Shown here one piece after another: positions 8,723-18,598 of a stretch of 64,000 nt of DNA. A program made the position numbers and the translations under genes. Under the pieces are notes generated by a model. It was not told where the DNA came from. It worked only from the letters and a program-made list of their open reading frames with translations, and made no database searches. Source of the stretch: a virus; IMG/VR virus record IMGVR_UViG_3300044616_001452. The stretch is one strand, 5' to 3'. The first letter of the stretch is position 1, and the number at the start of each line of letters is the position of its first letter.

Positions 8723-9166
8723 ATGACTCTTCACTACGGCAAATCTTTGCTGCCTGCAACTGTTGGTTTCGAACGTCTTCTTAGCACATTTGAAGAATTT
8801 GATAGGGCGGTCAAACCACAAACCTACCCTCCATACAATTTAGTAAAAACAAGTGATACCAATTGGACTATTGAAATCGCTATTGCGGGGTTTACCCGAG
8901 ATGAAATTGATATTACTCTTGACGATGGTAAACTTTTGGTCACAGGTAAAAGTGCCGATAAAGATACTACTCGTGAATTTATCCACTATGGTATTGCAAA
9001 GCGGGACTTCAATCATCGATTTATTTTGGCACAAACGGTACAGGTAAAATCTGCTAATATTGTCGATGGGCTTCTTATAATTGAACTGGAAAATATTATT
9101 CCAGAAGAAAGAAAGCCAAAGAAAATTCAAATTGGTAGCAAAAATACAACACTCTTGACAGAATAG
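8723..9166 (+). CDS. hsp20: Small heat-shock protein (Hsp20/IbpA family)
   Basis: YPPYNL, IEIAIAGF, GIAKRDF...F.LA, A.IVDGLL.I.L. Confidence 0.95.
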   Translation: MTLHYGKSLLPATVGFERLLSTFEEFDRAVKPQTYPPYNLVKTSDTNWTIEIAIAGFTRDEIDITLDDGKLLVTGKSADKDTTREFIHYGIAKRDFNHRFILAQTVQVKSANIVDGLLIIELENIIPEERKPKKIQIGSKNTTLLTE

Positions 9167-9183
9167 TCATTTTCGAGTATAAT
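9135..9183 (+). promoter_or_regulatory. Sigma70-type promoter with upstream GTAG-N8-CAAC box
   Basis: GTAGcaaaaataCAAC at 9135-9150; TTGACA-17-TATAAT at 9155-9183. Confidence 0.8.
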
Positions 9184-9208
9184 TTTATTATGGATGCGGT
9201 GAGTTAAC

Positions 9209-9340
9209 ATGGAAACATACTTGACAATGACAACTTTTACTGCCTTTGCTTTGGGTGCCTTTCTTGGTGCACTAGTTGGAAGGTTGGTAACATTTTGTCT
9301 CATGTCAGTATGTTTCCTTTTCTTATTGTTTAAGCTATGA
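9209..9340 (+). CDS. Small hydrophobic membrane protein (43 aa)
   Basis: METYLTMTTFTAFALGAFLGALVGRLVTFCLMSVCFLFLLFKL; lies directly after a promoter; ATGA overlap with the next gene. Confidence 0.6.
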   Translation: METYLTMTTFTAFALGAFLGALVGRLVTFCLMSVCFLFLLFKL

Positions 9341-9528
9341 ATACAAAAGATCAACCAATTAAAATGCGCAATCGCTTTAATTTGACGGATGTTTATTACA
9401 CATTAGCGCACTGGCCGTCTAAAGAAATTGATGGTGTTTTGTTTCTACCTGTAGTAAAAAATTATCCTTCAAATCAAAAACAACCTTTACATTATATCCG
9501 AAAAGATTCTTTGGAAAAAACTAAATGA
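9337..9528 (+). CDS. Hypothetical protein
   Basis: ORF with start/stop overlaps on both sides. Confidence 0.65.
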   Translation: MNTKDQPIKMRNRFNLTDVYYTLAHWPSKEIDGVLFLPVVKNYPSNQKQPLHYIRKDSLEKTK

Positions 9529-10304
9529 AAATTGCACTTGCATCTGACGTTCATCTGGAATTCGGTACTACATCATTCAATAACACTGATAATGCAGATG
9601 TTCTTATTTTATCGGGTGATATTTGTGTCGCTAACAATTTTCATCCTACAGATAAAAAATTTTTTCGTGAATGTTCTGAGCGTTTTCCAAATGTGATTTA
9701 TATCATGGGAAACCATGAACACTACAATGGTGATTATACACTGACCGAAAATCTTCTTCGTGAAGAGTTGGAAGAATTTACAAATATTCATCTGCTTGAA
9801 AAGCAAACGGTTGAGATCAATGGCTACACTTTTATTGGTGCTACTCTTTGGACCGACATGAACAAAAACGATCCTAATACTTTGTGGCATGTTAGCCGTG
9901 TAATGAACGATTTTCGTATTATTCGTAATAGTGGAGCGATTGAAGATCGAGAAAAACTTACTCCAATGTTTGTGTATAATGAACATGTGAGTACAATGCA
10001 CTATATCAAGAGTGTCATTGACGCTAACCCTGAAGGTAAGTTCGTAGTTGTTGGGCATCATGCACCATCTAAGAAGTCAGTGAAACCTCGCTATCATGGC
10101 GATATTCTTACGAACGGTGCTTATTCTTCGGACTTGTCGGAGTTTATTCTTGACCACCCACAAATCAAACTATGGACGCATGGGCACACTCATGATGTTT
10201 TTGATTATATGATCGGTGATACTCGTATATTGTGTAATCCTCGTGGATATGCTCTATACGAAGAGCGCGCTGATGAATTTGAATTGCTTTTTACGGAGAT
10301 TTAA
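9525..10304 (+). CDS. Calcineurin-like metallophosphoesterase
   Basis: SDVH, GDI, GNHE, HHAP, HGHTH, NPRGY. Confidence 0.92.
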   Translation: MKIALASDVHLEFGTTSFNNTDNADVLILSGDICVANNFHPTDKKFFRECSERFPNVIYIMGNHEHYNGDYTLTENLLREELEEFTNIHLLEKQTVEINGYTFIGATLWTDMNKNDPNTLWHVSRVMNDFRIIRNSGAIEDREKLTPMFVYNEHVSTMHYIKSVIDANPEGKFVVVGHHAPSKKSVKPRYHGDILTNGAYSSDLSEFILDHPQIKLWTHGHTHDVFDYMIGDTRILCNPRGYALYEERADEFELLFTEI

Positions 10305-10305
10305 A

Positions 10306-10587
10306 ATGCCTATTTTTATGATTGATACTGTTCACACTTTTCGCCATAAGTGGCTGATTGAAGCAGAGACATTGGAACACGCTTACGATGAAATGGTGAT
10401 GACTGAACATGATCGTAAGTTTGATGAACTGACACAAAAATGTCTCGGTGAAATGATTATTGATGGGCGTGAAGTGACACGTGAAGAAATTGATAAAGTA
10501 GTTGCAACTCTTAAAGAGGACAAGGATGAATGGGTAAATCATTGGCTTGTGGATAAATGTATTCATAAAGTCGATTATTCTAAATAA
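10306..10587 (+). CDS. Hypothetical protein
   Basis: GGAG RBS before ATG 10306. Confidence 0.7.
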   Translation: MPIFMIDTVHTFRHKWLIEAETLEHAYDEMVMTEHDRKFDELTQKCLGEMIIDGREVTREEIDKVVATLKEDKDEWVNHWLVDKCIHKVDYSK

Positions 10588-10592
10588 TATTT

Positions 10593-10667
10593 CTGGCCGT
10601 CGTTCAATGGATAGGACAGCATTCTTCTAAAGTGCGAATGGGGGTTCGATTCCCTCCGGCCGGGCCA
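10593..10667 (+). tRNA. tRNA-Arg(UCU)
   Basis: Cloverleaf; anticodon loop CTTCTAA; T-loop TTCGATT; encoded CCA. Confidence 0.93.
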
Positions 10668-10684
10668 AACAATTTCGAGGTTTT

Positions 10685-11143
10685 GTGAAAGAAAAATTTA
10701 TTAATGCATATATGAAGGTAGCCGAAACGTTTGCCGAATTGTCATCGGCTCGGCGCCTTCATGTTGGCGCGATTATTGTAAAAGATGATCGTATCATTTC
10801 CATTGGTTATAATGGAATGCCCTCTGGTTGGGACAATGATTGTGAGGATTTAGTTGTCTATAGAAAAGAAATCGAACCTGGCATTTTTAACAACGAATAT
10901 AAACATGAATGGAAAACAAAACCCGAAGTCCTTCACGCTGAGACGAATGCAATTGCTAAGTTAGCTAAATCTACCGAATCTGGAAACGGCTCAACTTTAT
11001 TTGTTACGCATGCACCTTGTATGGATTGTGCAAAACTAGTTTATCAAAGTGGCATTAGTTCAGTTTACTATAGAAATACTTACCGTTCCGAAGATGGTAT
11101 TAATTTTTTAAATGCTGCTGGAGTGAACGTAAACAGAGTATAA
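10685..11143 (+). CDS. cd: dCMP deaminase
   Basis: GYNG, HAETNA, PCMDC. Confidence 0.93.
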   Translation: MKEKFINAYMKVAETFAELSSARRLHVGAIIVKDDRIISIGYNGMPSGWDNDCEDLVVYRKEIEPGIFNNEYKHEWKTKPEVLHAETNAIAKLAKSTESGNGSTLFVTHAPCMDCAKLVYQSGISSVYYRNTYRSEDGINFLNAAGVNVNRV

Positions 11144-11200
11144 TTCACCAGATGAAAAATCCATTGCTCTAAATAAAATGGAGCATACCTGGAGGATTAT

Positions 11201-11716
11201 ATGCATCTCAGAGTGATCAATAGTCCAGAAAAAAATTTCACCCCATTTGTAAGAAAAGCCTCACTTTTTTATGCGGAATATCTGATGCCAAGTAAAAGGC
11301 TCAGAGATAACGTGCATCTAAAAATAAAGTTCAATAAAAAAAGTAACTATTGGGGTTTGGCATACATTGATGATAATAATGATGCTAAAAAACCTAGAAA
11401 GTTTGTAGTAGAATTACATCCTTGGATCGGCGCAAGAGAAATTTTTATAACCTTAGCACATGAAATGGTGCACATTCGACAATATGTCAAGGGTGACACC
11501 AATGAAAATTTATCCAAATGGAAAGGTGAAAGAATCAATTCAGAAGTGATGGATTATTACCATCATCCATGGGAAATGGAAGCTTATAGTTTAGAAACTT
11601 GTCTATATACCAAGTTCGCTATAAAAGAACAATTATGGTATGTTTTTAAAGATATAGGTAATCCAGAATTACCAATCAAAGAAGAAAAAATAAAATGGAG
11701 AAGTAAACCAATTTAA
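11201..11716 (+). CDS. Putative zinc metallopeptidase (HExxH)
   Basis: TLAHEMVHIRQY and PWEMEA motifs. Confidence 0.7.
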   Translation: MHLRVINSPEKNFTPFVRKASLFYAEYLMPSKRLRDNVHLKIKFNKKSNYWGLAYIDDNNDAKKPRKFVVELHPWIGAREIFITLAHEMVHIRQYVKGDTNENLSKWKGERINSEVMDYYHHPWEMEAYSLETCLYTKFAIKEQLWYVFKDIGNPELPIKEEKIKWRSKPI

Positions 11717-11717
11717 T

Positions 11718-12461
11718 ATGAAAACTGCTTTATTATTGACAGGTAATCCAAGATTTTCAAAAGACTTCGATTCACAGATACATAATCTAAAAAATAGCGA
11801 AATAGATTGGTATATTTGTTTTTGGAAAAGAGAAGAAGGTTTTGATCCAAAAATATCCAAAAATTGGCATGTGAAAAATTCTTGGCAAGTGTTGGAAAAA
11901 ATAAAACCTTTTCTTCCACCTGGGCATAGAATTAAATATATTGAACTTCTCGATCCTAACGATTACTCCGTTTTGCCTTACGATTATCAAGACTATTACA
12001 GTAATCCAATAAACATCTGGCAACAATATAAAATATTACAATATTGTGATAGGTGGAGAAGAGAATTAGATTCTTATGATTTAGTTATTCGTTCAAGAAC
12101 AGATTTAGGGCTTAGTGAAAATATCGATTTAAAATTGGCGTACAGTTGTTTGTCTAAAGATTCGAAGGTCATTTATACACCTAATAATCAAAGAAACGGC
12201 TATATAGCAAATGTCGGTGGTTATCAAACCGGATTTTGTGACCAATTTGCAATAGGGTTACCACACATAATATCGGCATATTGTGATTCTATAGATAAAT
12301 TTCATGATTTGTATATGTCAGGCACAAAATACAATCCGGAATATCTTTTACAAACTGCACTGATGAACGAAGGTATAACTTGGCCTCCAACTTCTTTTGA
12401 GATAATAAGAGAAAATATACACTGGCAACCTATTGACCATGGAAAATGGGCGAACGTGTAA
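11718..12461 (+). CDS. Putative glycosyltransferase-like protein (GQPR family, paralog 2)
   Basis: ALLLTGNPRF, YDLVIRSRTD, CDQFAIG. Confidence 0.6.
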   Translation: MKTALLLTGNPRFSKDFDSQIHNLKNSEIDWYICFWKREEGFDPKISKNWHVKNSWQVLEKIKPFLPPGHRIKYIELLDPNDYSVLPYDYQDYYSNPINIWQQYKILQYCDRWRRELDSYDLVIRSRTDLGLSENIDLKLAYSCLSKDSKVIYTPNNQRNGYIANVGGYQTGFCDQFAIGLPHIISAYCDSIDKFHDLYMSGTKYNPEYLLQTALMNEGITWPPTSFEIIRENIHWQPIDHGKWANV

Positions 12462-12527
12462 ATATTTTTATAAAAAATTAATAAAAAGCCTATATACCTG
12501 TATATTAAATTTTTTACGGAGATTTTT

Positions 12528-12632
12528 GTGTTAGTCTTATCCAAACCTACCTTTACAACATGCGAGTATCGCCCAAGCATTGCCGGCGATAATCTGTCAT
12601 GGATACAAGGTACAAGGGGTTTGATGAGTTAA
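12528..12632 (+). CDS. Putative attenuator leader peptide (34 aa, MLVLSKPTFTTCEYRPSIAGDNLSWIQGTRGLMS)
   Basis: GGAG SD 6 nt before GTG; contains 19 of 20 amino acids; last codons overlap the antiterminator strand. Confidence 0.75.
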   Translation: MLVLSKPTFTTCEYRPSIAGDNLSWIQGTRGLMS

Positions 12633-12690
12633 AGTTCCAAAAAGTTCCAAAAATTCTCAAACCCCTAGATCGAAAGACTAGGGGTTTTTT
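12542..12690 (+). promoter_or_regulatory. Transcription attenuator (alternative antiterminator/terminator pairings)
   Basis: AGGGGTTTGA (12615-12624) is perfectly complementary to TCAAACCCCT (12657-12666), which overlaps the terminator 5' arm. Confidence 0.75.
12659..12690 (+). terminator. Rho-independent terminator upstream of the tRNA array
   Basis: AAACCCCTAG-atcgaaaga-CTAGGGGTTT followed by more Ts. Confidence 0.9.
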
Positions 12691-12693
12691 GTT

Positions 12694-12765
12694 GTTGTAT
12701 AAAAACAACAGTGTATTGCCAAGACAAGCAAATGCTACTATAATACACATATACGTTCTTTAAAA
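12694..12765 (+). promoter_or_regulatory. tRNA-array promoter 1 with GTTG-N8-CAAC box and boxA-like site
   Basis: GTTGtataaaaaCAAC; TTGCCA-17-TATAAT at 12716-12744; CGTTCTTTAAAA at 12754-12765. Confidence 0.75.
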
Positions 12766-12781
12766 ATTAGATGTAACTTGT

Positions 12782-12855
12782 TGGGGTGTGGTGAAATGGT
12801 ATCACACAGGATTTTGATTCCCGTATTCTTGGTTCGATTCCAAGCACCCCTGCCA
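12782..12855 (+). tRNA. tRNA-Gln(UUG)
   Basis: Cloverleaf; loop TTTTGAT; CCA. Confidence 0.92.
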
Positions 12856-12862
12856 AAATTTA

Positions 12863-12950
12863 GGAAGCGTGGTCGAGTGGTCTATGGCGCCAGTCTTGAA
12901 ATCTGGAGGTCCGAAAGGGTCCGTGAGTTCGAATCTCACCGCTTCCGCCA
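12863..12950 (+). tRNA. tRNA-Ser(UGA)
   Basis: Long variable arm; loop CTTGAAA; GCCA end. Confidence 0.93.
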
Positions 12951-12958
12951 AATTTAAT

Positions 12959-13048
12959 GGAGTGATCCCATAATGGTATTGGAGCGGATTGCTAATCCGT
13001 CGGTTTGCGAAAGCAGGCTTCTGGGTTCGAGTCCCAGTCACTCCGCCA
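12959..13048 (+). tRNA. tRNA-Ser(GCU)
   Basis: Long variable arm; loop TTGCTAA; GCCA end. Confidence 0.93.
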
Positions 13049-13050
13049 AC

Positions 13051-13145
13051 GGTAGGTAGCACTGGTGTGCGGCTGAGTCTTATAAGCTCGGGAGATCGGT
13101 CAGATGGGCTGAAACGGAAGGGTTCGAATCCCTTACCTACTACCA
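13051..13145 (+). tRNA. Atypical class II tRNA with UAU anticodon (amino-acid identity uncertain)
   Basis: GGTAGGT/ACCTACT acceptor; GCAC-TGGT-GTGC D arm; 6-bp anticodon stem with loop CTTATAA; long variable arm; TTCGAAT; ACCA. Confidence 0.8.
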
Positions 13146-13152
13146 AATACAT

Positions 13153-13230
13153 GCACAGGTGGCAGAGAGGCCCAATGCAAGAGTCTGCAAAACTCTAAAG
13201 CCGTCGGTTCGAATCCGACCCTGTGCTCCA
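13153..13230 (+). tRNA. tRNA-Cys(GCA)
   Basis: Loop CTGCAAA; U73 discriminator; CCA. Confidence 0.93.
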
Positions 13231-13345
13231 GTTGCAATAAAACAACGTTGTAAAAATACAACAAAATCGAAGTTGACAACGGTACCAATACCTGTATAAT
13301 TGATTCTGTTGTCGATGCAGTAGTGATAACAAACGATCTTTAAAA
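13231..13345 (+). promoter_or_regulatory. tRNA-array promoter 2 with tandem GTTG-N8-CAAC boxes and boxA-like site
   Basis: Boxes at 13231-13246 and 13247-13262; TTGACA-16-TATAAT at 13273-13300; CGATCTTTAAAA at 13334-13345. Confidence 0.75.
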
Positions 13346-13361
13346 AAAATAGCTGTTCAAT

Positions 13362-13436
13362 GCACGGTTCGTCTATCGGTTAGGACGCTAGCCTTTCACG
13401 CTGGAAAGACGGGTTCGATTCCCGTACCGTGTACCA
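13362..13436 (+). tRNA. tRNA-Glu(UUC)
   Basis: Loop CTTTCAC; cloverleaf; CCA. Confidence 0.93.
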
Positions 13437-13558
13437 TATTGAAGCACATTAGAATCTGTAAAAAGATCCAGGGTTGGTACACCTCATGACTTTCGGCCGT
13501 GCTGAGTTTACGGAAACAAGCGGAAGCATGCATAGACCGTAGTGTGTTTCAATATGGT
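13433..13558 (+). ncRNA. Putative ncRNA A closed by a long stem (inter-tRNA spacer)
   Basis: ACCATATTGAAGCACATT pairs with AGTGTGTTTCAATATGGT; same stem family as 13972-14071. Confidence 0.55.
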
Positions 13559-13724
13559 AATAGGGTTCTGTCCCGTAAGGGAATGGTAACGAAAGTGCCT
13601 TCCAATATGTTCGGTGGCCAACGAGCATAGATGCGGAATGTATGAGTAGAGAGGTGAACGAAAGTTTGCGATAAAGCCCCGGTAGGCCTAAGCATGTAAT
13701 GTGTACAAAGTACATCCCTGTATC
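13556..13724 (+). ncRNA. Putative structured ncRNA B
   Basis: TAGGG...CCCTG closing pair; hairpins TCCC-gtaa-GGGA, TATGTTCG..CGAGCATA, AAC-gaaa-GTT, TGTAC-aaa-GTACA; no sense-strand ORF in the track. Confidence 0.45.
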
Positions 13725-13731
13725 AATTTTC

Positions 13732-13818
13732 GGGTGCGTAGCCAAATGGTTGACGGCAGCAGACTGTAAATCTGTGACATAAGAAACGCTGGTGGTTCGA
13801 ATCCATCCGCACCCACCA
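13732..13818 (+). tRNA. tRNA-Tyr(GUA)
   Basis: Loop CTGTAAA; long variable region; CCA. Confidence 0.93.
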
Positions 13819-13820
13819 AT

Positions 13821-13894
13821 GCGGGTATAACTTAGTGGTAAAGTAGCTGGCTTTTAACCAGCAAATCCGAGTTCGATTCTCGGTGCCCGTACCA
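13821..13894 (+). tRNA. tRNA-Lys(UUU)
   Basis: Loop CTTTTAA; CCA. Confidence 0.93.
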
Positions 13895-13898
13895 AATT

Positions 13899-13975
13899 GC
13901 CCTCTTACTCCAATTGGTAGAGAGGACGGTCTTAGAAGCCGTAGAGTCTCAGTTCGAATCTGAGAGAGGGCACCA
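13899..13975 (+). tRNA. tRNA-Leu(UAG), short variable loop
   Basis: Loop CTTAGAA; variable region only 5 nt; ACCA. Confidence 0.88.
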
Positions 13976-14071
13976 TATTGAAGCATTCTAAACTGGACGC
14001 AGGATCGGGGAAAGTCAAAAGCGGGTTGATCACCACAAGTAGACTGGAGATCAAGAGTGCTTTAATATGGT
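13972..14071 (+). ncRNA. Putative ncRNA C closed by a long stem (inter-tRNA spacer)
   Basis: ACCATATTGAAGCATTCT pairs with AGAGTGCTTTAATATGGT (18 bp); fills the gap between tRNA-Leu and tRNA-Asp exactly. Confidence 0.55.
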
Positions 14072-14143
14072 TCCATAGTATATCGGCGAGTATAGCGCCC
14101 TGTCACGGCGCAGGAACGGGTTCGAATCCCGTTGGGACCGCCA
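14069..14143 (+). tRNA. tRNA-Asp(GUC)
   Basis: Loop CTGTCAC; GCCA end. Confidence 0.93.
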
Positions 14144-14145
14144 AT

Positions 14146-14219
14146 ACCTGATTAGCTCAAAGGTAGAGCACCCGGCTGATAACCGGAAGACACTGGATCG
14201 TTACCAGTATCAGGTACCA
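14146..14219 (+). tRNA. tRNA-Ile(GAU), non-canonical T-loop
   Basis: Loop CTGATAA; T-loop ATCGTTA; ACCA. Confidence 0.88.
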
Positions 14220-14225
14220 GATTTA

Positions 14226-14274
14226 GTTGTTTATATACAACAGTATTGCCAAGTTCGATATATAGTTATATAAT
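14226..14274 (+). promoter_or_regulatory. tRNA-array promoter 3 with GTTG-N8-CAAC box
   Basis: GTTGtttatataCAAC; TTGCCA-17-TATAAT at 14246-14274. Confidence 0.75.
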
Positions 14275-14344
14275 GTTTTTCAAGTCGGGAGACTTTAAGA
14301 AGTACGCCGTTTCCTTCGGGTAACCCTGTATACGGTAAGCAGGA

Positions 14345-14541
14345 TTTTTATTGTTGTCGTTTTGGAAAATACCTGTGAACGCAGGTTAGTGAATCTGTCA
14401 ATGTGTGGTTAATTCGAATAGACCACGTATACAGTTGTTATCAAGTGAAGACCTTTTGGACGCATTAGGAATAAGCTTGGTCGTTAAAATCAAACGCCAG
14501 TACGGTGAAGGCTGGCTATAACGAAACGACAACAATAAAAA
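14345..14541 (+). ncRNA. Putative ~200-nt multi-hairpin ncRNA D
   Basis: Perfect 18-bp terminal inverted repeat TTTTTATTGTTGTCGTTT/AAACGACAACAATAAAAA enclosing several hairpins. Confidence 0.55.
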
Positions 14542-14543
14542 TT

Positions 14544-14618
14544 GGGCTGCTAGTGATAATGGGAGCACGCCGCCTTTGCACGGCGGAGGTTGGAGTTCGA
14601 TCCTCCAGCGGTCCACCA
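14544..14618 (+). tRNA. tRNA-Ala(UGC)
   Basis: Loop TTTGCAC; G3:U70 identity pair; ACCA. Confidence 0.94.
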
Positions 14619-14624
14619 AGTTTC

Positions 14625-14698
14625 GCCCCTATAGTTAAATGGTATAACAGTTGACTTGTAATCATCAATTTCCAGTTCGATTCCGGGTGGGGGCACCA
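14625..14698 (+). tRNA. tRNA-Thr(UGU)
   Basis: Loop CTTGTAA; CCA. Confidence 0.9.
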
Positions 14699-14706
14699 AT
14701 TTTAAG

Positions 14707-14784
14707 CCGAGTGTAGGATAGTCCGGTCATTCCGCCTGCTTTGGGAGCAGGAAATCGTGTGTTCGAATCACACCACTCGGACCA
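14707..14784 (+). tRNA. tRNA-Pro(UGG)
   Basis: Loop TTTGGGA; CCA. Confidence 0.93.
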
Positions 14785-14790
14785 GTTTAT

Positions 14791-14866
14791 TCCGGAGTAG
14801 CACAGAGGTAGTTGCGTCTGACTGTTAATCAGAATGTCGTTGGTTCGATCCCAGCCTCCGGAGCCA
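14791..14866 (+). tRNA. tRNA-Asn(GUU)
   Basis: Loop CTGTTAA; TCC...GGAGCCA. Confidence 0.94.
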
Positions 14867-14872
14867 GTTGAA

Positions 14873-14947
14873 GGTAATGTAGCATAACGGTAGTGCGCCT
14901 CCTTCATACGGAGAAAAGTGTTGGTTCAACTCCAACCATTACCACCA
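14873..14947 (+). tRNA. tRNA(CAU), probably elongator Met
   Basis: Loop TTCATAC; G1-C72 paired; Met versus Ile2 not resolved. Confidence 0.8.
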
Positions 14948-14959
14948 AAGGAGATTATT

Positions 14960-15847
14960 ATGTTGTTGGATGAAATTATTTCTGTTCCATATACTACTCA
15001 TCCTAAGATGACGAAAAATAAAGGCAACATTTTCAACAAAACTCCAAATTTAGATTATATTCGTTCTAAAGAAAAAGAGTTAAAACAATTTGCTCCTGAT
15101 TTGTGTGCCGAGACATTTGAAAATATCTCAAAGCAACTTGTTCGAAAAAGTTCAATCTACTGTGGTGTACCACAAACAGATTCAATGATTGAATTTGCAA
15201 TGAATTTTGAAGAAGATGTTGCAATTATGCATAACGGAAAATTATCAGGAATTTGTTTCTGTTTTCCAAGCAGTTGGATTCCTAAAAAACGCATAGGTAT
15301 GTCTCTAGAAGATATTCATTCACAAGTTGCGGATAATGAAAGACTTATAAAAATGAGCGCAAAAATTGCAAGCACAATGGCTGATCCTGTTTTAGGTTCT
15401 TTTCGAAGATATGTATGGACGATTACAAATAATCCTGAATTGAGTAATCATCCAAAAAGAAAAAGTATGATTGTTCCTAAAAGTTTAGATGATTTGTATT
15501 TTAGACTTGAAACTCAAACAACTGCACCTATAGGTGACTGTGTGACAAGTTTGTTCTTTGTTAAAGTTCAAGTAATTCCTCTTAGTCATGTCTGGGGAAG
15601 TTACGGTAAACTAATTACTAACAGTGTAAATTCTATGAGTGATGCAATCTTGGAATACAAAAATCTAAAGCATATTAAAACGGTCCTTAGTTCAATGGAT
15701 CAGAACACCGGGCTACGAACCCGTGAGGTTGGGAGTTCGAATCTCTCAGGACCGGCCAACCATAATTTGAAAGATGAGTATTATGATATTCTTACAACTG
15801 AAGATTGTTTAGTTAAAGATTCTCCCAGTGGTGTAAAGGCAACATAA
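14960..15847 (+). CDS. DUF3445 / heme-dependent oxidative N-demethylase alpha-like protein; 3' end reads through tRNA genes
   Basis: AGGAG RBS; EDVAIM, CFPSSW..K.IG.SL..IH..V, RYVWTI, FRLETQT motifs. Confidence 0.7.
   Translation: MLLDEIISVPYTTHPKMTKNKGNIFNKTPNLDYIRSKEKELKQFAPDLCAETFENISKQLVRKSSIYCGVPQTDSMIEFAMNFEEDVAIMHNGKLSGICFCFPSSWIPKKRIGMSLEDIHSQVADNERLIKMSAKIASTMADPVLGSFRRYVWTITNNPELSNHPKRKSMIVPKSLDDLYFRLETQTTAPIGDCVTSLFFVKVQVIPLSHVWGSYGKLITNSVNSMSDAILEYKNLKHIKTVLSSMDQNTGLRTREVGSSNLSGPANHNLKDEYYDILTTEDCLVKDSPSGVKAT
15681..15758 (+). tRNA. tRNA-Arg(ACG)
   Basis: Loop CTACGAA; TTCGAAT; GCCA. Confidence 0.9.
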
Positions 15848-15895
15848 GAGTCTCCAAAACTTTTGATTGCGGTTCGAATCCGTACTGGGAGGCCA
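15822..15895 (+). tRNA. tRNA-Trp(CCA)
   Basis: Loop CTCCAAA; G73; CCA. Confidence 0.92.
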
Positions 15896-15913
15896 TTTTA
15901 TCAGAGGTGGATT

Positions 15914-16384
15914 ATGTACAACAAAAAAATTAATCTAGAAGAAGTTAAATCGTTTATTGAAAGCTGTGGTCCCAATACCAAAGTTTATCTTGGTTGTGAC
16001 TCGGAAAAAGTTAAAATGAATGGTGTTTGGCATGCTGATTATATTATAGCCATTGTTGTGCATATGAATAGCAAAAATGGTTGTAAAATTTTCGGGCAAA
16101 TCACTCGTGAACGTGACTATGATCAAGCTCGCAATAAGCCACGTATGCGTCTGATGAATGAAGTTTATAAAGTTGCAGAAATGTATCTGAATCTTGCGGC
16201 AATCATTGATGTGGATATTGAAGTACATCTTGACATTAACCCAAATGAAGAGTATAATTCAAATATCGTAATTAATGAAGCAATTGGCTATATAAAAGGC
16301 ATGTGTAATGTTGTTCCTCTTGTAAAACCAAATGCTTTTGCTGCGTCTTATGCAGCAGATAGATTGAAGAGTCTTGCAGCATAG
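15914..16384 (+). CDS. RNase H-like YkuK family protein
   Basis: VYLGCDS, RLMNEV, EVHLDIN, KP.AFAASYAAD. Confidence 0.8.
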   Translation: MYNKKINLEEVKSFIESCGPNTKVYLGCDSEKVKMNGVWHADYIIAIVVHMNSKNGCKIFGQITRERDYDQARNKPRMRLMNEVYKVAEMYLNLAAIIDVDIEVHLDINPNEEYNSNIVINEAIGYIKGMCNVVPLVKPNAFAASYAADRLKSLAA

Positions 16385-16390
16385 AATATA

Positions 16391-16465
16391 GCGGGTATGA
16401 TGTTAACGGTAGCATGACAGCCTTCCAAGCTGATCGAATCGGTTCGAATCCGATTACCCGCTCCA
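16391..16465 (+). tRNA. tRNA-Gly(UCC)
   Basis: Loop CTTCCAA; GCG...CGCTCCA. Confidence 0.93.
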
Positions 16466-16471
16466 AAATTT

Positions 16472-16548
16472 GCGGCTATGGTGTTTAACGGTTAGCACGA
16501 GACCTTGCCAAGGTTTAGGTTCCAGTTCGAATCTGGATAGCCGCTCCA
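16472..16548 (+). tRNA. tRNA-Gly(GCC)
   Basis: Loop TTGCCAA; GCG...CGCTCCA. Confidence 0.93.
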
Positions 16549-16554
16549 ATCAAT

Positions 16555-16629
16555 GGTGTCTATGGTGTAGTGGAAGCATTACTCTCTGTGAAAGAGTAGG
16601 TACGAGGTCGGTACTCGTTAGACACCCCA
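16555..16629 (+). tRNA. tRNA-His(GUG) with G-1, non-canonical T-loop
   Basis: Loop CTGTGAA; G-1:C73; T-loop GTCGGTA. Confidence 0.88.
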
Positions 16630-16630
16630 G

Positions 16631-16704
16631 GCTTCGTTAGTTTAATGGTAGAACACCGCCCTTACAAGACGGTTACGGCAGTTCGATTCTGTCACGAAGC
16701 ACCA
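16631..16704 (+). tRNA. tRNA-Val(UAC)
   Basis: Loop CTTACAA; ACCA. Confidence 0.92.
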
Positions 16705-16708
16705 ATTT

Positions 16709-16784
16709 GCCGCTTTAGCTGATGTGGTCATAGCAACGGTCTGAAGAGCCGTGGAATCTGGTTCGATTCCAGAAGGCGGTACCA
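16709..16784 (+). tRNA. tRNA-Phe(GAA)
   Basis: Loop CTGAAGA (G37); ACCA. Confidence 0.9.
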
Positions 16785-16785
16785 T

Positions 16786-16814
16786 TTGACAAGTTACATT
16801 TAATTTGATATAAT
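16786..16814 (+). promoter_or_regulatory. Consensus sigma70 promoter for the last three tRNAs
   Basis: TTGACA-17-TATAAT with extended -10 TGn. Confidence 0.85.
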
Positions 16815-16824
16815 GTTTTATAAT

Positions 16825-16912
16825 GCGGATGTGGCGAAATTGGTGAAACGCAGCAGACTTAAAATCTGCCACATTAGAAACACTGCGGGTTCGAATCCCG
16901 CCATCCGCACCA
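16825..16912 (+). tRNA. tRNA-Leu(UAA)
   Basis: Loop CTTAAAA; long variable region; ACCA. Confidence 0.93.
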
Positions 16913-16920
16913 AGTTTAAA

Positions 16921-16999
16921 GGGCCTCTAGCTCATGCATGGTTAGAGCAGCGAACTCATAATTCGTTGGTGCGGGGTTCGACTCCCCGGGGGCCCACCA
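16921..16999 (+). tRNA. tRNA(CAU), probably Ile2 (lysidine)
   Basis: GGGCC..TAGCTCA..GGTTAGAGCAG body and CTCATAA loop resemble proteobacterial Ile2. Confidence 0.8.
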
Positions 17000-17007
17000 G
17001 ATTCAAT

Positions 17008-17081
17008 CGCGGGTTAGAGAAACGGTATCTCAGAAGCCTCATAAGCTTCAGTTGTTGGTTCGACTCCAGCACCCGCTACCA
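17008..17081 (+). tRNA. tRNA(CAU), initiator-like acceptor stem
   Basis: CGCGGG start with C1xU72 mismatch; loop CTCATAA; lacks the GGG/CCC anticodon stem. Confidence 0.8.
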
Positions 17082-17594
17082 CTTTCCTGCTTCTCTACCA
17101 AAATCAAAAAACCATACACAAAATCGTATTGCAACTGTTAATGTAATAATAAGAATTATTCCCCAAAAAGTATTTTCAATAAATCTCTTTCTTCGAATTG
17201 CTTGATCACGAATCATTCTTTCTCTTTTTTCACGTATGTCTCTTCTTAAATGAAGAAACTGACTGTAACCTTCTGCACCAAGATGTTGAAGTTCCCCATA
17301 GTAAAACATATGATATATCTCTGCTTCCATTTCACGGAGTTTTTGTTGTGCAATGATAATATCAAATGCTTCGGCTGTTTCGCTTTGCCCAAATCCTATC
17401 TTTTCAAATAAACCTAATTTTCTCTCACCCGAATCATTTTTACTATTGTTTATAAGTTGTTGTAATTGCCCAGCAGCATCAGCCCATTTTGAAAGCTGTC
17501 GATAAACACCTTCAATTTCTTGCCCAACTTTAACCGCAGCCTTTAAGCCATTAAAGGCGGCTGTCACTGTTCCCATTAGAGTTATTGGATCCAT
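17076..17594 (-). CDS. Hypothetical protein with C-terminal transmembrane helix
   Basis: MDPITL N-terminus, coiled coil, hydrophobic C-terminus; coupled to the upstream gene. Confidence 0.75.
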   Translation of the reverse strand: MDPITLMGTVTAAFNGLKAAVKVGQEIEGVYRQLSKWADAAGQLQQLINNSKNDSGERKLGLFEKIGFGQSETAEAFDIIIAQQKLREMEAEIYHMFYYGELQHLGAEGYSQFLHLRRDIREKRERMIRDQAIRRKRFIENTFWGIILIITLTVAIRFCVWFFDFGREAGKW

Positions 17595-18598
17595 CAGTTT
17601 ACCTTTACAAGGTTATTCCTAAAAATACGCCATGCATTCTCCCAACTCCATTCTTTACTCTTTTCAAGTACAACATCTCGGTTTAAATTTAAACAATCAT
17701 CCACTGCGATTGAAAGATTGTCGTTCATATATCCAGTTAGTCCTTGTGATACTATGTCTTTAGGTCCTCTACATGGATATGCCGCTATAGGTGTTCCGCA
17801 TGCCATAGCCTCAATCATGACGATACCAAATGTTTCCCATTTGCTCGGAAAAACAAATACATCAGCATTAGCATAATAATATGCTAAGTCTAAACCCGTT
17901 TTAAAGCCAACGAATTCAACGTCTGGATAATTCTTTTCATATACATCTCGCATAGGTCCATCACCCACCATAATCTTGTGAGAATTCGGATAATCGATAT
18001 TAAAGAAATCTTCTAGATTTTTTTCTTTACTAACTCTACTCACACATACAAGCAATTTTTTATCATCAGACTTGTTGCGCTGACTAGGATTAAATATTGC
18101 CCTATCAACTCCTCTTGTCCATGAAATTAGCTCACCATCAAACCCATTTTCGCGTAGATGCTTTACCATCGTATCTGTAGTAGTTAATACTTTTCCCGAA
18201 TGCTTGTGAAACCAACGTATTAAAGGCCAAGTAAGGGCTTCAGGAATTCCAAAAAGTTTTCTAAGTCCTTCCGGAAAATTAGTGTGATAAGCAGTATTGT
18301 ACCGATAACCGCGTTTGTCAAGATATTGTCGAGCACACAAACCAAGAGGACCCTCGGTGGCGATATGGATATGATCCGGAGATATCTCCTCAATCTTCTC
18401 GCCGATTTTCCTGGGATAGGCAATCTTGACTTCGTTGTAGCCAGGGCAATCAATGTAGTTGAACCACCCGGGATTAAGATATACAAAACGATAACCGTCC
18501 AAAAGCGCACAAGCCTCGATATTTTTGTAGGTTGTGACCACTCCATTTATTTGATCCTGCAAGTTGTCTGTAATAATTAGTACAATTTTTTCAGACAT
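17594..18598 (-). CDS. GT4 glycosyltransferase, Agt-like glycolipid synthase
   Basis: ITD...QINGVV.T, HIATEGPLG, YHT.FPE, RVSKEKNL, FVFPS..ETFG.V.IEAMACG.P. Confidence 0.85.
   Translation of the reverse strand: MSEKIVLIITDNLQDQINGVVTTYKNIEACALLDGYRFVYLNPGWFNYIDCPGYNEVKIAYPRKIGEKIEEISPDHIHIATEGPLGLCARQYLDKRGYRYNTAYHTNFPEGLRKLFGIPEALTWPLIRWFHKHSGKVLTTTDTMVKHLRENGFDGELISWTRGVDRAIFNPSQRNKSDDKKLLVCVSRVSKEKNLEDFFNIDYPNSHKIMVGDGPMRDVYEKNYPDVEFVGFKTGLDLAYYYANADVFVFPSKWETFGIVMIEAMACGTPIAAYPCRGPKDIVSQGLTGYMNDNLSIAVDDCLNLNRDVVLEKSKEWSWENAWRIFRNNLVKVN

Follow-up and report, generated by a model that had tools for sequence, protein, structure and literature searches.

A candidate leader-peptide attenuator with an unusually diverse leader at the head of phage tRNA arrays

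Leader-peptide attenuation is known in amino-acid operons and in some synthetase operons, and the enterobacterial amino-acid leaders include trpL, hisL, leuL and pheL as well as the multivalent thrL and ilvL. The ribosome-dependent attenuators of ARE-ABCF resistance genes, for example vmlR, also sense stalled ribosomes. The T-box binds uncharged tRNA directly and does not need translation. For tRNA genes, transcription is known to be governed at the promoter, through growth-rate and stringent control, and the tRNA arrays of phages have been discussed as replacing host tRNAs that are degraded or cleaved in infection. Here we analyse a short element that lies directly ahead of a tRNA array in IMG/VR virus record IMGVR_UViG_3300044616_001452, which derives from an uncultured large lake phage. 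The whole stretch of DNA analysed, called the window below, comprises 64,000 nucleotides of this 91.6-kb record. We propose to read the element as a leader-peptide attenuator of transcription that depends on the ribosome and responds when decoding is slow, and we give this reading a probability of roughly 0.6.

As far as sequence and modelling can tell, the element resembles the trpL-type attenuators in having a promoter, a short leader open reading frame (ORF), an intrinsic terminator formed by RNA segments 3 and 4 (3:4) and an exclusive antiterminator formed by segments 2 and 3 (2:3). It also has a segment 1 that appears able to hold segment 2, and its stop codon lies where a ribosome in the act of terminating would mask segment 2. 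Four features, namely the terminator, the exclusive antiterminator, the conserved leader ORF and the placement of its stop codon, thus appear to match leader-peptide attenuators. Unlike the trpL type, the leader has no run of codons for a single amino acid and instead contains 19-20 different amino acids, and its ORF extends through segment 2. The genes downstream are tRNAs rather than biosynthetic enzymes, the system is phage-borne, and a strong promoter between the attenuator and these genes means that the attenuator is not the sole path to them. Two defining features of attenuators, the run of regulatory codons and the attenuator as the sole path from promoter to gene, are therefore absent here.

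The proposed response shares with the T-box the outcome that a shortage of charged tRNA would lead to antitermination at an intrinsic terminator. In its logic, as far as our folding model can represent it, the element would be closest to toiL- and vmlR-type leaders, in which stalls at many places in a short ORF are sensed and not those at the codons of one amino acid. These leaders differ in that their known triggers are antibiotics and their targets protein genes, and no sequence relation to the phage leader was found. In toiL of E. coli topAI-yjhQ, stalls at many positions of the upstream ORF (uORF) refold the leader RNA and switch downstream expression on, by a mechanism that works through occlusion of the ribosome-binding site and Rho-dependent termination (PMC12121999). 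A long tRNA array of Anabaena sp. PCC 7120 spreads horizontally, and its expression rises when translation is impaired (PMC8421152). That array is bacterial, and the words 'attenuat', 'leader', 'uORF' and 'terminator' have 0 occurrences in the text of PMC8421152. A full-text literature search found no leader-peptide attenuator described for tRNA genes or before phage tRNA arrays, which is not proof of absence.

Leader architecture and its conservation

All parts of the element are read from the + strand. A Shine-Dalgarno (SD) sequence, GGAG (12518-12521), stands 6 nt 5' of a GTG start codon at 12528. This codon opens the leader ORF (12528-12632; 34 codons plus TAA), which encodes 19 different amino acids and no His, with 17 different ones in residues K6-Q27. 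A weak sigma70-like promoter (12478..12506; TTAATA-17-TATATT, 9/12) occupies the position where relatives have TTGCCA/TTGACA-17-TATAAT or TACAAT. In the minimum-free-energy fold, a C-rich segment 1 (12535..12554), the putative anti-antiterminator, pairs with segment 2 (12614..12630), the 5' strand of the antiterminator. The same fold contains an apical hairpin, TATCGCC/GGCGATA (12567-12591), which encodes YR and GDN of the peptide core. Segment 3 (12653..12667) consists of a 6-nt flank plus the terminator 5' arm and has either segment 2 or segment 4 as its partner, as judged from the swap test and the covariation described below. The intrinsic terminator (12659-12690; -17 kcal/mol) has a 10+2 bp stem with the arms AAACCCCTAG / CTAGGGGTTT, a GAAA loop and a T6 run, and its stem starts 26 nt past the stop codon. 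As a whole, the leader RNA folds into one long hairpin followed by the terminator (-57 kcal/mol, z = -4.8).

The 2:3 pairing of the window contains an exact 10-bp complement, AGGGGTTTGA (12615-12624) with TCAAACCCCT (12657-12666), and, if one bulge is allowed, it grows to 14 bp (12615-12629 with 12653-12666; -19.2 kcal/mol). When the upstream RNA was dinucleotide-shuffled, the mean was -7.6 kcal/mol and 0/1000 shuffles reached the observed value. The 1:2 duplex (-13.2 kcal/mol) was reached by 140/1000 shuffles and stands weakly above them. The original prediction, which had been made from the window sequence without database searches, had described the SD sequence, the start codon, the ORF with its amino-acid content, the complement, the terminator and the apical hairpin, and all were found as it gave them. 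The same is true of the 26 tRNA genes downstream, which cover all 20 amino acids; their array (12782..17081, + strand) begins with tRNA-Gln. An Rfam cmscan of positions 9000-18000 with E up to 1 returned tRNAs and chance matches only, with no leader family and no T-box, and the leader peptide has no family match in PHROGs or Pfam. Within the spacer that separates segment 3 from the stop codon, a tandem duplication, AAAGTTCCAA AAAGTTCCAA (12631-12652), is shared only by the relatives L069 and L070.

Relatives of the element were reached by three routes: the upstream protein, a scan for the conserved core and a scan for a conserved box at the array head. The 247-residue protein encoded directly upstream (11718-12461), which belongs to a PHROG of unknown function, served as a handle and has 83 homologues; three of the contigs reached with it were near-identical. 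An element profile was run against ~100 loci fetched via the protein alignment, and the scans for the core and the box were further searches of IMG/VR. A terminator-pattern scan of IMG/VR gave 46 matches, mostly unrelated terminators, and was uninformative. The haul consists of 42 unique elements and three divergent ones (L137, L014 and L225), or 45 distinct versions, on ~90 metagenomic contigs. Searches of GenBank phages found no match to the window's element nor to the commoner element type, and an exhaustive profile search of 1.8 billion proteins returned gene calls of this same element only. What can be seen directly in these versions is the ORF and its conservation, a set of exclusive and covarying pairings, and a fixed place ahead of tRNA arrays.

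The ORF ends, in every lineage, with codons complementary to the terminator 5' arm plus 4-6 nt of its 5' flank, and this flank lies outside the terminator hairpin. The pair occurs in ~10 sequence versions in which both strands change together, for example ATTCTCAAACCCCT with AGGGGTTTGATGAGT, CTACATGAACCCC with GGGGTTTATGTAG, ACACAAAACCCAG with CTGGGTTTTGTGT and TTTTAAGGACCCC with GGGGTCTTTAAAA. The lineages' own 2:3 duplexes have energies of -14 to -22 kcal/mol, compared with -7 to -10 for shuffled upstream RNA. No more than 3/1000 shuffles reached the lineage's own energy in 11/12 lineages tested, and 16/1000 did so in the decayed L091. In a swap test, upstream regions were markedly poorer partners for a foreign segment 3 than for their own. 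RNAalifold recovered part of the 2:3 helix from a MAFFT alignment that was not structure-fitted, with compensatory changes in 5/6 pairs. For the full 2:3 helix in this sequence-only alignment, 84.8% of the cells are paired, against at most 57.6% when the partners are slid by 1-3 columns. Compensatory cells number 28, where column shuffles give 10 and 0/500 of them reach 28. The 2:3 pairing and the terminator stem have 7-9 nt in common, and the two structures are therefore mutually exclusive. Judged from these comparisons, the antiterminator is real, and so is the attenuator architecture, which is conserved. The original prediction had drawn the complete layout of 1:2, 2:3 and 3:4 pairings. Covariation and shuffles bear out 2:3, and 3:4 is present in every version. 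The 1:2 pairing, which most minimum-free-energy folds contain as a duplex of a C-rich stretch (ORF nt 8-28) and the G-rich segment 2, is weakly supported and less certain than 2:3.

The remaining anatomy is kept as well. The leader ORF has 34-44 codons in the 42 elements and 29 in L137. Its frame is open in 42/42 elements, with the +1 frame open in 2 and the +2 frame in 0, and all 45 versions preserve an uninterrupted ORF, whose start is of the SD or the leaderless type. Two designs of initiation open this same frame: an SD plus GTG, TTG or ATG in 22/42 elements, the window included, and an ATG exactly 6 nt past TATAAT in 15/42. The latter would correspond to a leaderless mRNA beginning at AUG. 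A leader promoter with a sigma70 score of at least 10/12 lies directly upstream in 22/42 elements. The RNAalifold consensus keeps the apical hairpin with compensatory changes; in L069 and L070 the hairpin is retained with an entirely different sequence, and its sequence is replaced in L137 too. Every version has a terminator, with a stem of -10 to -18 kcal/mol followed by a U-tract. The terminator 5' arm begins 20-31 nt past the stop codon in the 42 elements (23-31 nt in 41/42), and in 38/42 the 3' end of segment 2 is at most 8 nt short of the first stop-codon base and at most 1 nt beyond it. In E. coli, a terminator located 28 bp past a stop codon is ~90% effective, compared with under 10% at 5 bp, because the terminating ribosome needs 10-15 nt of clearance (PMC4824070). 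The open ORF in 42/42 elements and the covarying antiterminator/terminator pair show that the layout is conserved in relatives, which was the test that the original prediction had set for itself.

The element keeps its place when its surroundings change. On ~20 contigs with an unrelated upstream gene it is still followed by a promoter and a tRNA array, with tRNA-Gln 146-366 nt past the stop codon, and it is missing wherever no tRNAs come after the upstream gene. Therefore, the element belongs to the head of the tRNA array and not to the upstream gene. The profile detected it in 23/24 arrays that begin with tRNA-Gln, the 24th of which (L137) has a divergent copy, and in 1/4 arrays that begin with tRNA-Ser; nearly all leader-carrying relatives have tRNA-Gln in first place. 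It is from this position that a link between the attenuator and the tRNA array is proposed. In two relatives at 80% identity in the upstream protein the whole 229-nt segment is missing, and the upstream stop codon is directly followed by a GTTG..CAAC palindrome, the array promoter and tRNA-Ser. A homologous segment is present in contigs at 68% and 61% identity. The element occurs once in the 91.6-kb record, and this single copy and the 80% relatives had suggested a non-conserved indel or mobile insert, an explanation that was dropped because more distant relatives carry the element.

Proposed response to slow decoding

In the mechanism that we propose, leader transcripts would start at the leader's own promoter, which is weak in the window and strong in many relatives, or come from the upstream operon. 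The last codons of the ORF (segment 2) could pair with the terminator 5' arm and its flank (segment 3). A ribosome that travels smoothly to the stop codon would mask segment 2, the 3:4 terminator would form 26 nt further on, and transcription would end. With no ribosome on the leader, segment 2 would be held by segment 1 and the terminator would form as well. A ribosome that is slow or stalled at about codons 2-25 would leave segment 2 free to pair with segment 3. The terminator would then be blocked, and RNA polymerase would continue across the array promoter into the tRNA genes. The signal would be slow decoding in general, and because the leader has nearly every amino acid, a shortage of many charged tRNAs could act as the trigger. 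The proposal supposes that the ORF is translated and that termination depends on the ribosome; the direction of the response and a benefit for the phage would follow from it.

This behaviour was modelled by folding the leader with a ribosome mask, in which the RNA is masked to 12 nt past the first base of the A-site codon and the RNA 5' and 3' of the ribosome is separated. For the window without a ribosome, the probability of the terminator, P(terminator), is 0.97. The antiterminator is favoured with the A site at codons 2-25 and the terminator from codon 26 to the stop codon. The same pattern was obtained in 9/13 lineages. This thermodynamic model suggests a switching zone that would span most of the ORF, with an otherwise classical attenuation logic.

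The composition of the leaders bears on what such a zone could sense. Among the 42 leaders, 24 contain 20 different amino acids, 15 contain 19, and three contain 16-18. The divergent leaders have 19 in 29 residues (L137), 20 in 34 (L014) and 20 in 39 (L225), with the common peptide core lost in L137 and largely or partly lost in L014 and L225. High diversity, which the original prediction had proposed to look for in relatives, persists in lineages whose peptides are otherwise very different. In the window, a comparison with random or shuffled 34-mers, also foreseen there, showed that 0.8-4% of controls reach at least 19 different residues in 34, depending on the null used (stop-free 34-mers of the window, random sequences at local composition, proteome composition or shuffles of the ORF). 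Because the window leader is 1 of 198 small mechanical ORFs, its diversity alone is unremarkable, and it is meaningful only through the relatives. The probability per peptide is 0.2-5% with proteome composition or shuffles of the peptide's own ORF. The base composition of the segments was rejected as the cause of diversity, since 9- and 15-nt block shuffles give the same result as the whole-ORF null (mean ~16, P 0.2-5%). In a conservative test on 12 representatives, residues that matched an earlier representative in an alignment column were counted as inherited, and the combined p was about 0.002. Therefore, the diversity goes beyond inheritance alone and seems to be maintained.

Other properties of the leaders concern individual codons. 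Of the 25 anticodon classes that the phage encodes, 21-24 are represented in the codons of the leaders. Both isoacceptors are present in a mean of 3.7 of 5 split boxes, compared with 2.8 predicted from genome codon usage; the trend is consistent, and no single lineage is significant. His is found near the N terminus or after Trp and rarely at both places, a suggestive pattern (Fisher p = 0.0002, in a test that ignores phylogeny). A Gln-specific sensor, which the first tRNA of the array might bring to mind, was rejected, as each leader has a single Gln codon at a variable position.

Selection may have stocked the leader with nearly all amino acids so that it senses the whole charged-tRNA pool, although we find this extension of the attenuator reading doubtful. 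If it were true, depletion of almost any tRNA would stall the leader ribosome and increase transcription of the phage's complete tRNA set. The triggers could be host anticodon nucleases, phage-induced decay of host tRNAs or starvation. The element would then provide a homeostatic, counter-defence feedback from decoding speed to tRNA supply.

Several observations weigh against the attenuator reading, in whole or in part. In the mask folding, 4/13 lineages favour the terminator nearly everywhere, with the antiterminator never favoured in two of them and favoured at 1-3 codon positions in the other two. The 1:2 duplex stands weakly above shuffles, and the RNAalifold consensus does not contain it. 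The geometric sensing zone, made up of the codons at which a stall would keep segment 2 available, has a median of 16 different amino acids; His is missing from the zone in 26/38 peptides, Val in 25/38 and elongator Met in 37/38. The leader is therefore not a literal all-codon sensor, which is how the original prediction had described it. The nearest relatives, at 80%, 78% and in one case 68% identity in the upstream protein, have no element, and so it is dispensable. Most synonymous sites of the peptide core, EYRTPFIGSDNQSW, are invariant across lineages, when the neighbouring gene has a pS of 0.4-0.8. The conservation of the core points to an additional sequence-specific role of the RNA or the peptide, which the attenuator model leaves unexplained.

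The position of the array promoter limits the proposed response further. In the window a strong sigma70 promoter (12716-12744, + strand; TTGCCA-17-TATAAT) lies between the terminator and the first tRNA, as the original prediction had noted, and a strong array promoter lies between terminator and tRNAs in every lineage. It scores at least 10/12 in 41/41 versions and starts 20-35 nt past the U-tract. Read-through can therefore only add to the transcription of the array, and the attenuator would not govern the array outright. The caveat of the original prediction, that the leader would gate only upstream and possibly late transcription, needs correction. Because about half of the relatives have their own near-consensus leader promoter, the leader is not merely such a gate.

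Alternative explanations

Given the conservation of the peptide core, the element could also be read as a self-contained micro-gene. What matters would then be the peptide of 34-44 residues and its core EYRTPFIGSDNQSW, expressed from its own promoter, ended by its own terminator and without a regulatory tie to the tRNAs, and the alternative pairing would merely tune its own termination or the stability of its mRNA. The core is strongly conserved and the few changes within it are synonymous. In close pairs of elements, synonymous changes far outnumber non-synonymous ones (for example 5 vs 2 and 11 vs 7), with pN/pS of 0.1-0.2. The near-consensus leader promoter in about half of the lineages and the independent array promoter past the terminator would suit a micro-gene as well. 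However, the N- and C-terminal parts of the leader evolve fast, and the synonymous changes that do occur in the core preserve the pairing of the hairpin. Together with the frozen synonymous sites, this indicates that part of the conservation, and probably much of it, acts on the RNA. L069 and L070, L137 and L014 have lost most of the core yet retain all else of the architecture, including the ORF, the hairpin, the 2:3 pairing and the position. On this comparison, the core is dispensable for the architecture. The peptide belongs to no Pfam or PHROG family, the exhaustive profile search returned it in this context only, and a micro-gene leaves unexplained why the element always heads a tRNA array, no matter which gene lies upstream. 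We therefore regard a free-standing peptide gene as unlikely.

Constraint on the RNA could instead reflect a switch that depends on a factor or ligand, or a small RNA, with the apical hairpin binding a protein, a tRNA or a metabolite that would select the antiterminator or the terminator, and the ORF untranslated or irrelevant. The core is conserved at the nucleotide level, synonymous sites included, the RNA is strongly structured (z = -4.8), and the apical hairpin shows compensatory changes, all of which would be expected of such an RNA. On the other hand, all 45 versions keep the ORF open with the other frames closed, a start codon is retained in either the SD or the leaderless form, and the stop codon is locked to the 3' end of segment 2. 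Moreover, no Rfam family matches, the T-box included, and the hairpin sequence is wholly replaced in L069/L070 and L137. An RNA switch of this kind appears quite improbable to us. A third explanation would see in the element an ordinary terminator that closes the upstream operon and so insulates the array promoter, with the ORF, its diversity and the complementarity all due to chance. Seen in the window alone, the diversity of the leader is a 1-4% event among ~200 small ORFs, and the nearest relatives do without the segment. The comparative data already contradict this explanation: ORF, pairing and spacing have been kept, and covary, in 45 versions, and 0/1000 shuffles reach the 2:3 duplex of the window. 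It is hardly tenable, and a ribosome-dependent attenuator remains our preferred reading of the element.

The array head and its biological context

The window carries genes for a DNA polymerase, a DnaB-type helicase and a ribonucleotide reductase, and the upstream phosphoesterase has at most 41% identity to any cultured phage. A palindrome, GTTG-N8-CAAC (12694-12709), follows the terminator U-tract and precedes the -35 box of the array promoter. It is kept in all relatives, including the leader-less L005, L006, L053 and L058, and a dimeric regulator of array promoters may bind to it. A conserved box, GTTCTTTAAAAA(N)TTNNNTGTAA, is found at 12755-12777, between the -10 box and the first tRNA, and recurs in relatives at inner array promoters, before tRNA-Glu or tRNA-Leu. 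The leader and tRNA-Gln, which lie on either side of the array promoter, tend to be lost jointly. The L070 locus appears to be a mosaic relative to the window: the upstream proteins are 68% identical, and the 3' half of the leader, the terminator, the palindrome and the array promoter are almost identical. This suggests a recent exchange of a leader/terminator/promoter module between lineages.

Two observations concern the tRNA genes themselves. A 95-nt tRNA at 13051-13145 has the anticodon UAU according to ARAGORN, and its best Rfam score is tRNA-Sec-like (31 bits, below the family threshold). Relatives keep it too, at the third or fourth place in the array. In L053 (3247-4400) and in L054, a 78% relative, the first tRNA-Ser past the array promoter is apparently split by ~500 nt. 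The inserted stretch contains an ORF of 161-196 residues with a Cys/His-rich N terminus and may be an intron or a homing-endonuclease insertion.

Since the element is only ~180 nt in size, uses generic sigma70 promoter and terminator signals and comes in ~45 natural variants that carry compensatory changes, the proposed mechanism is directly testable although the phage and its host are uncultured. If the mechanism is correct, a conserved switch at the heads of phage tRNA arrays would tie decoding speed directly to tRNA supply. The phage would thereby monitor the loss of host tRNAs instead of expressing its array blindly.

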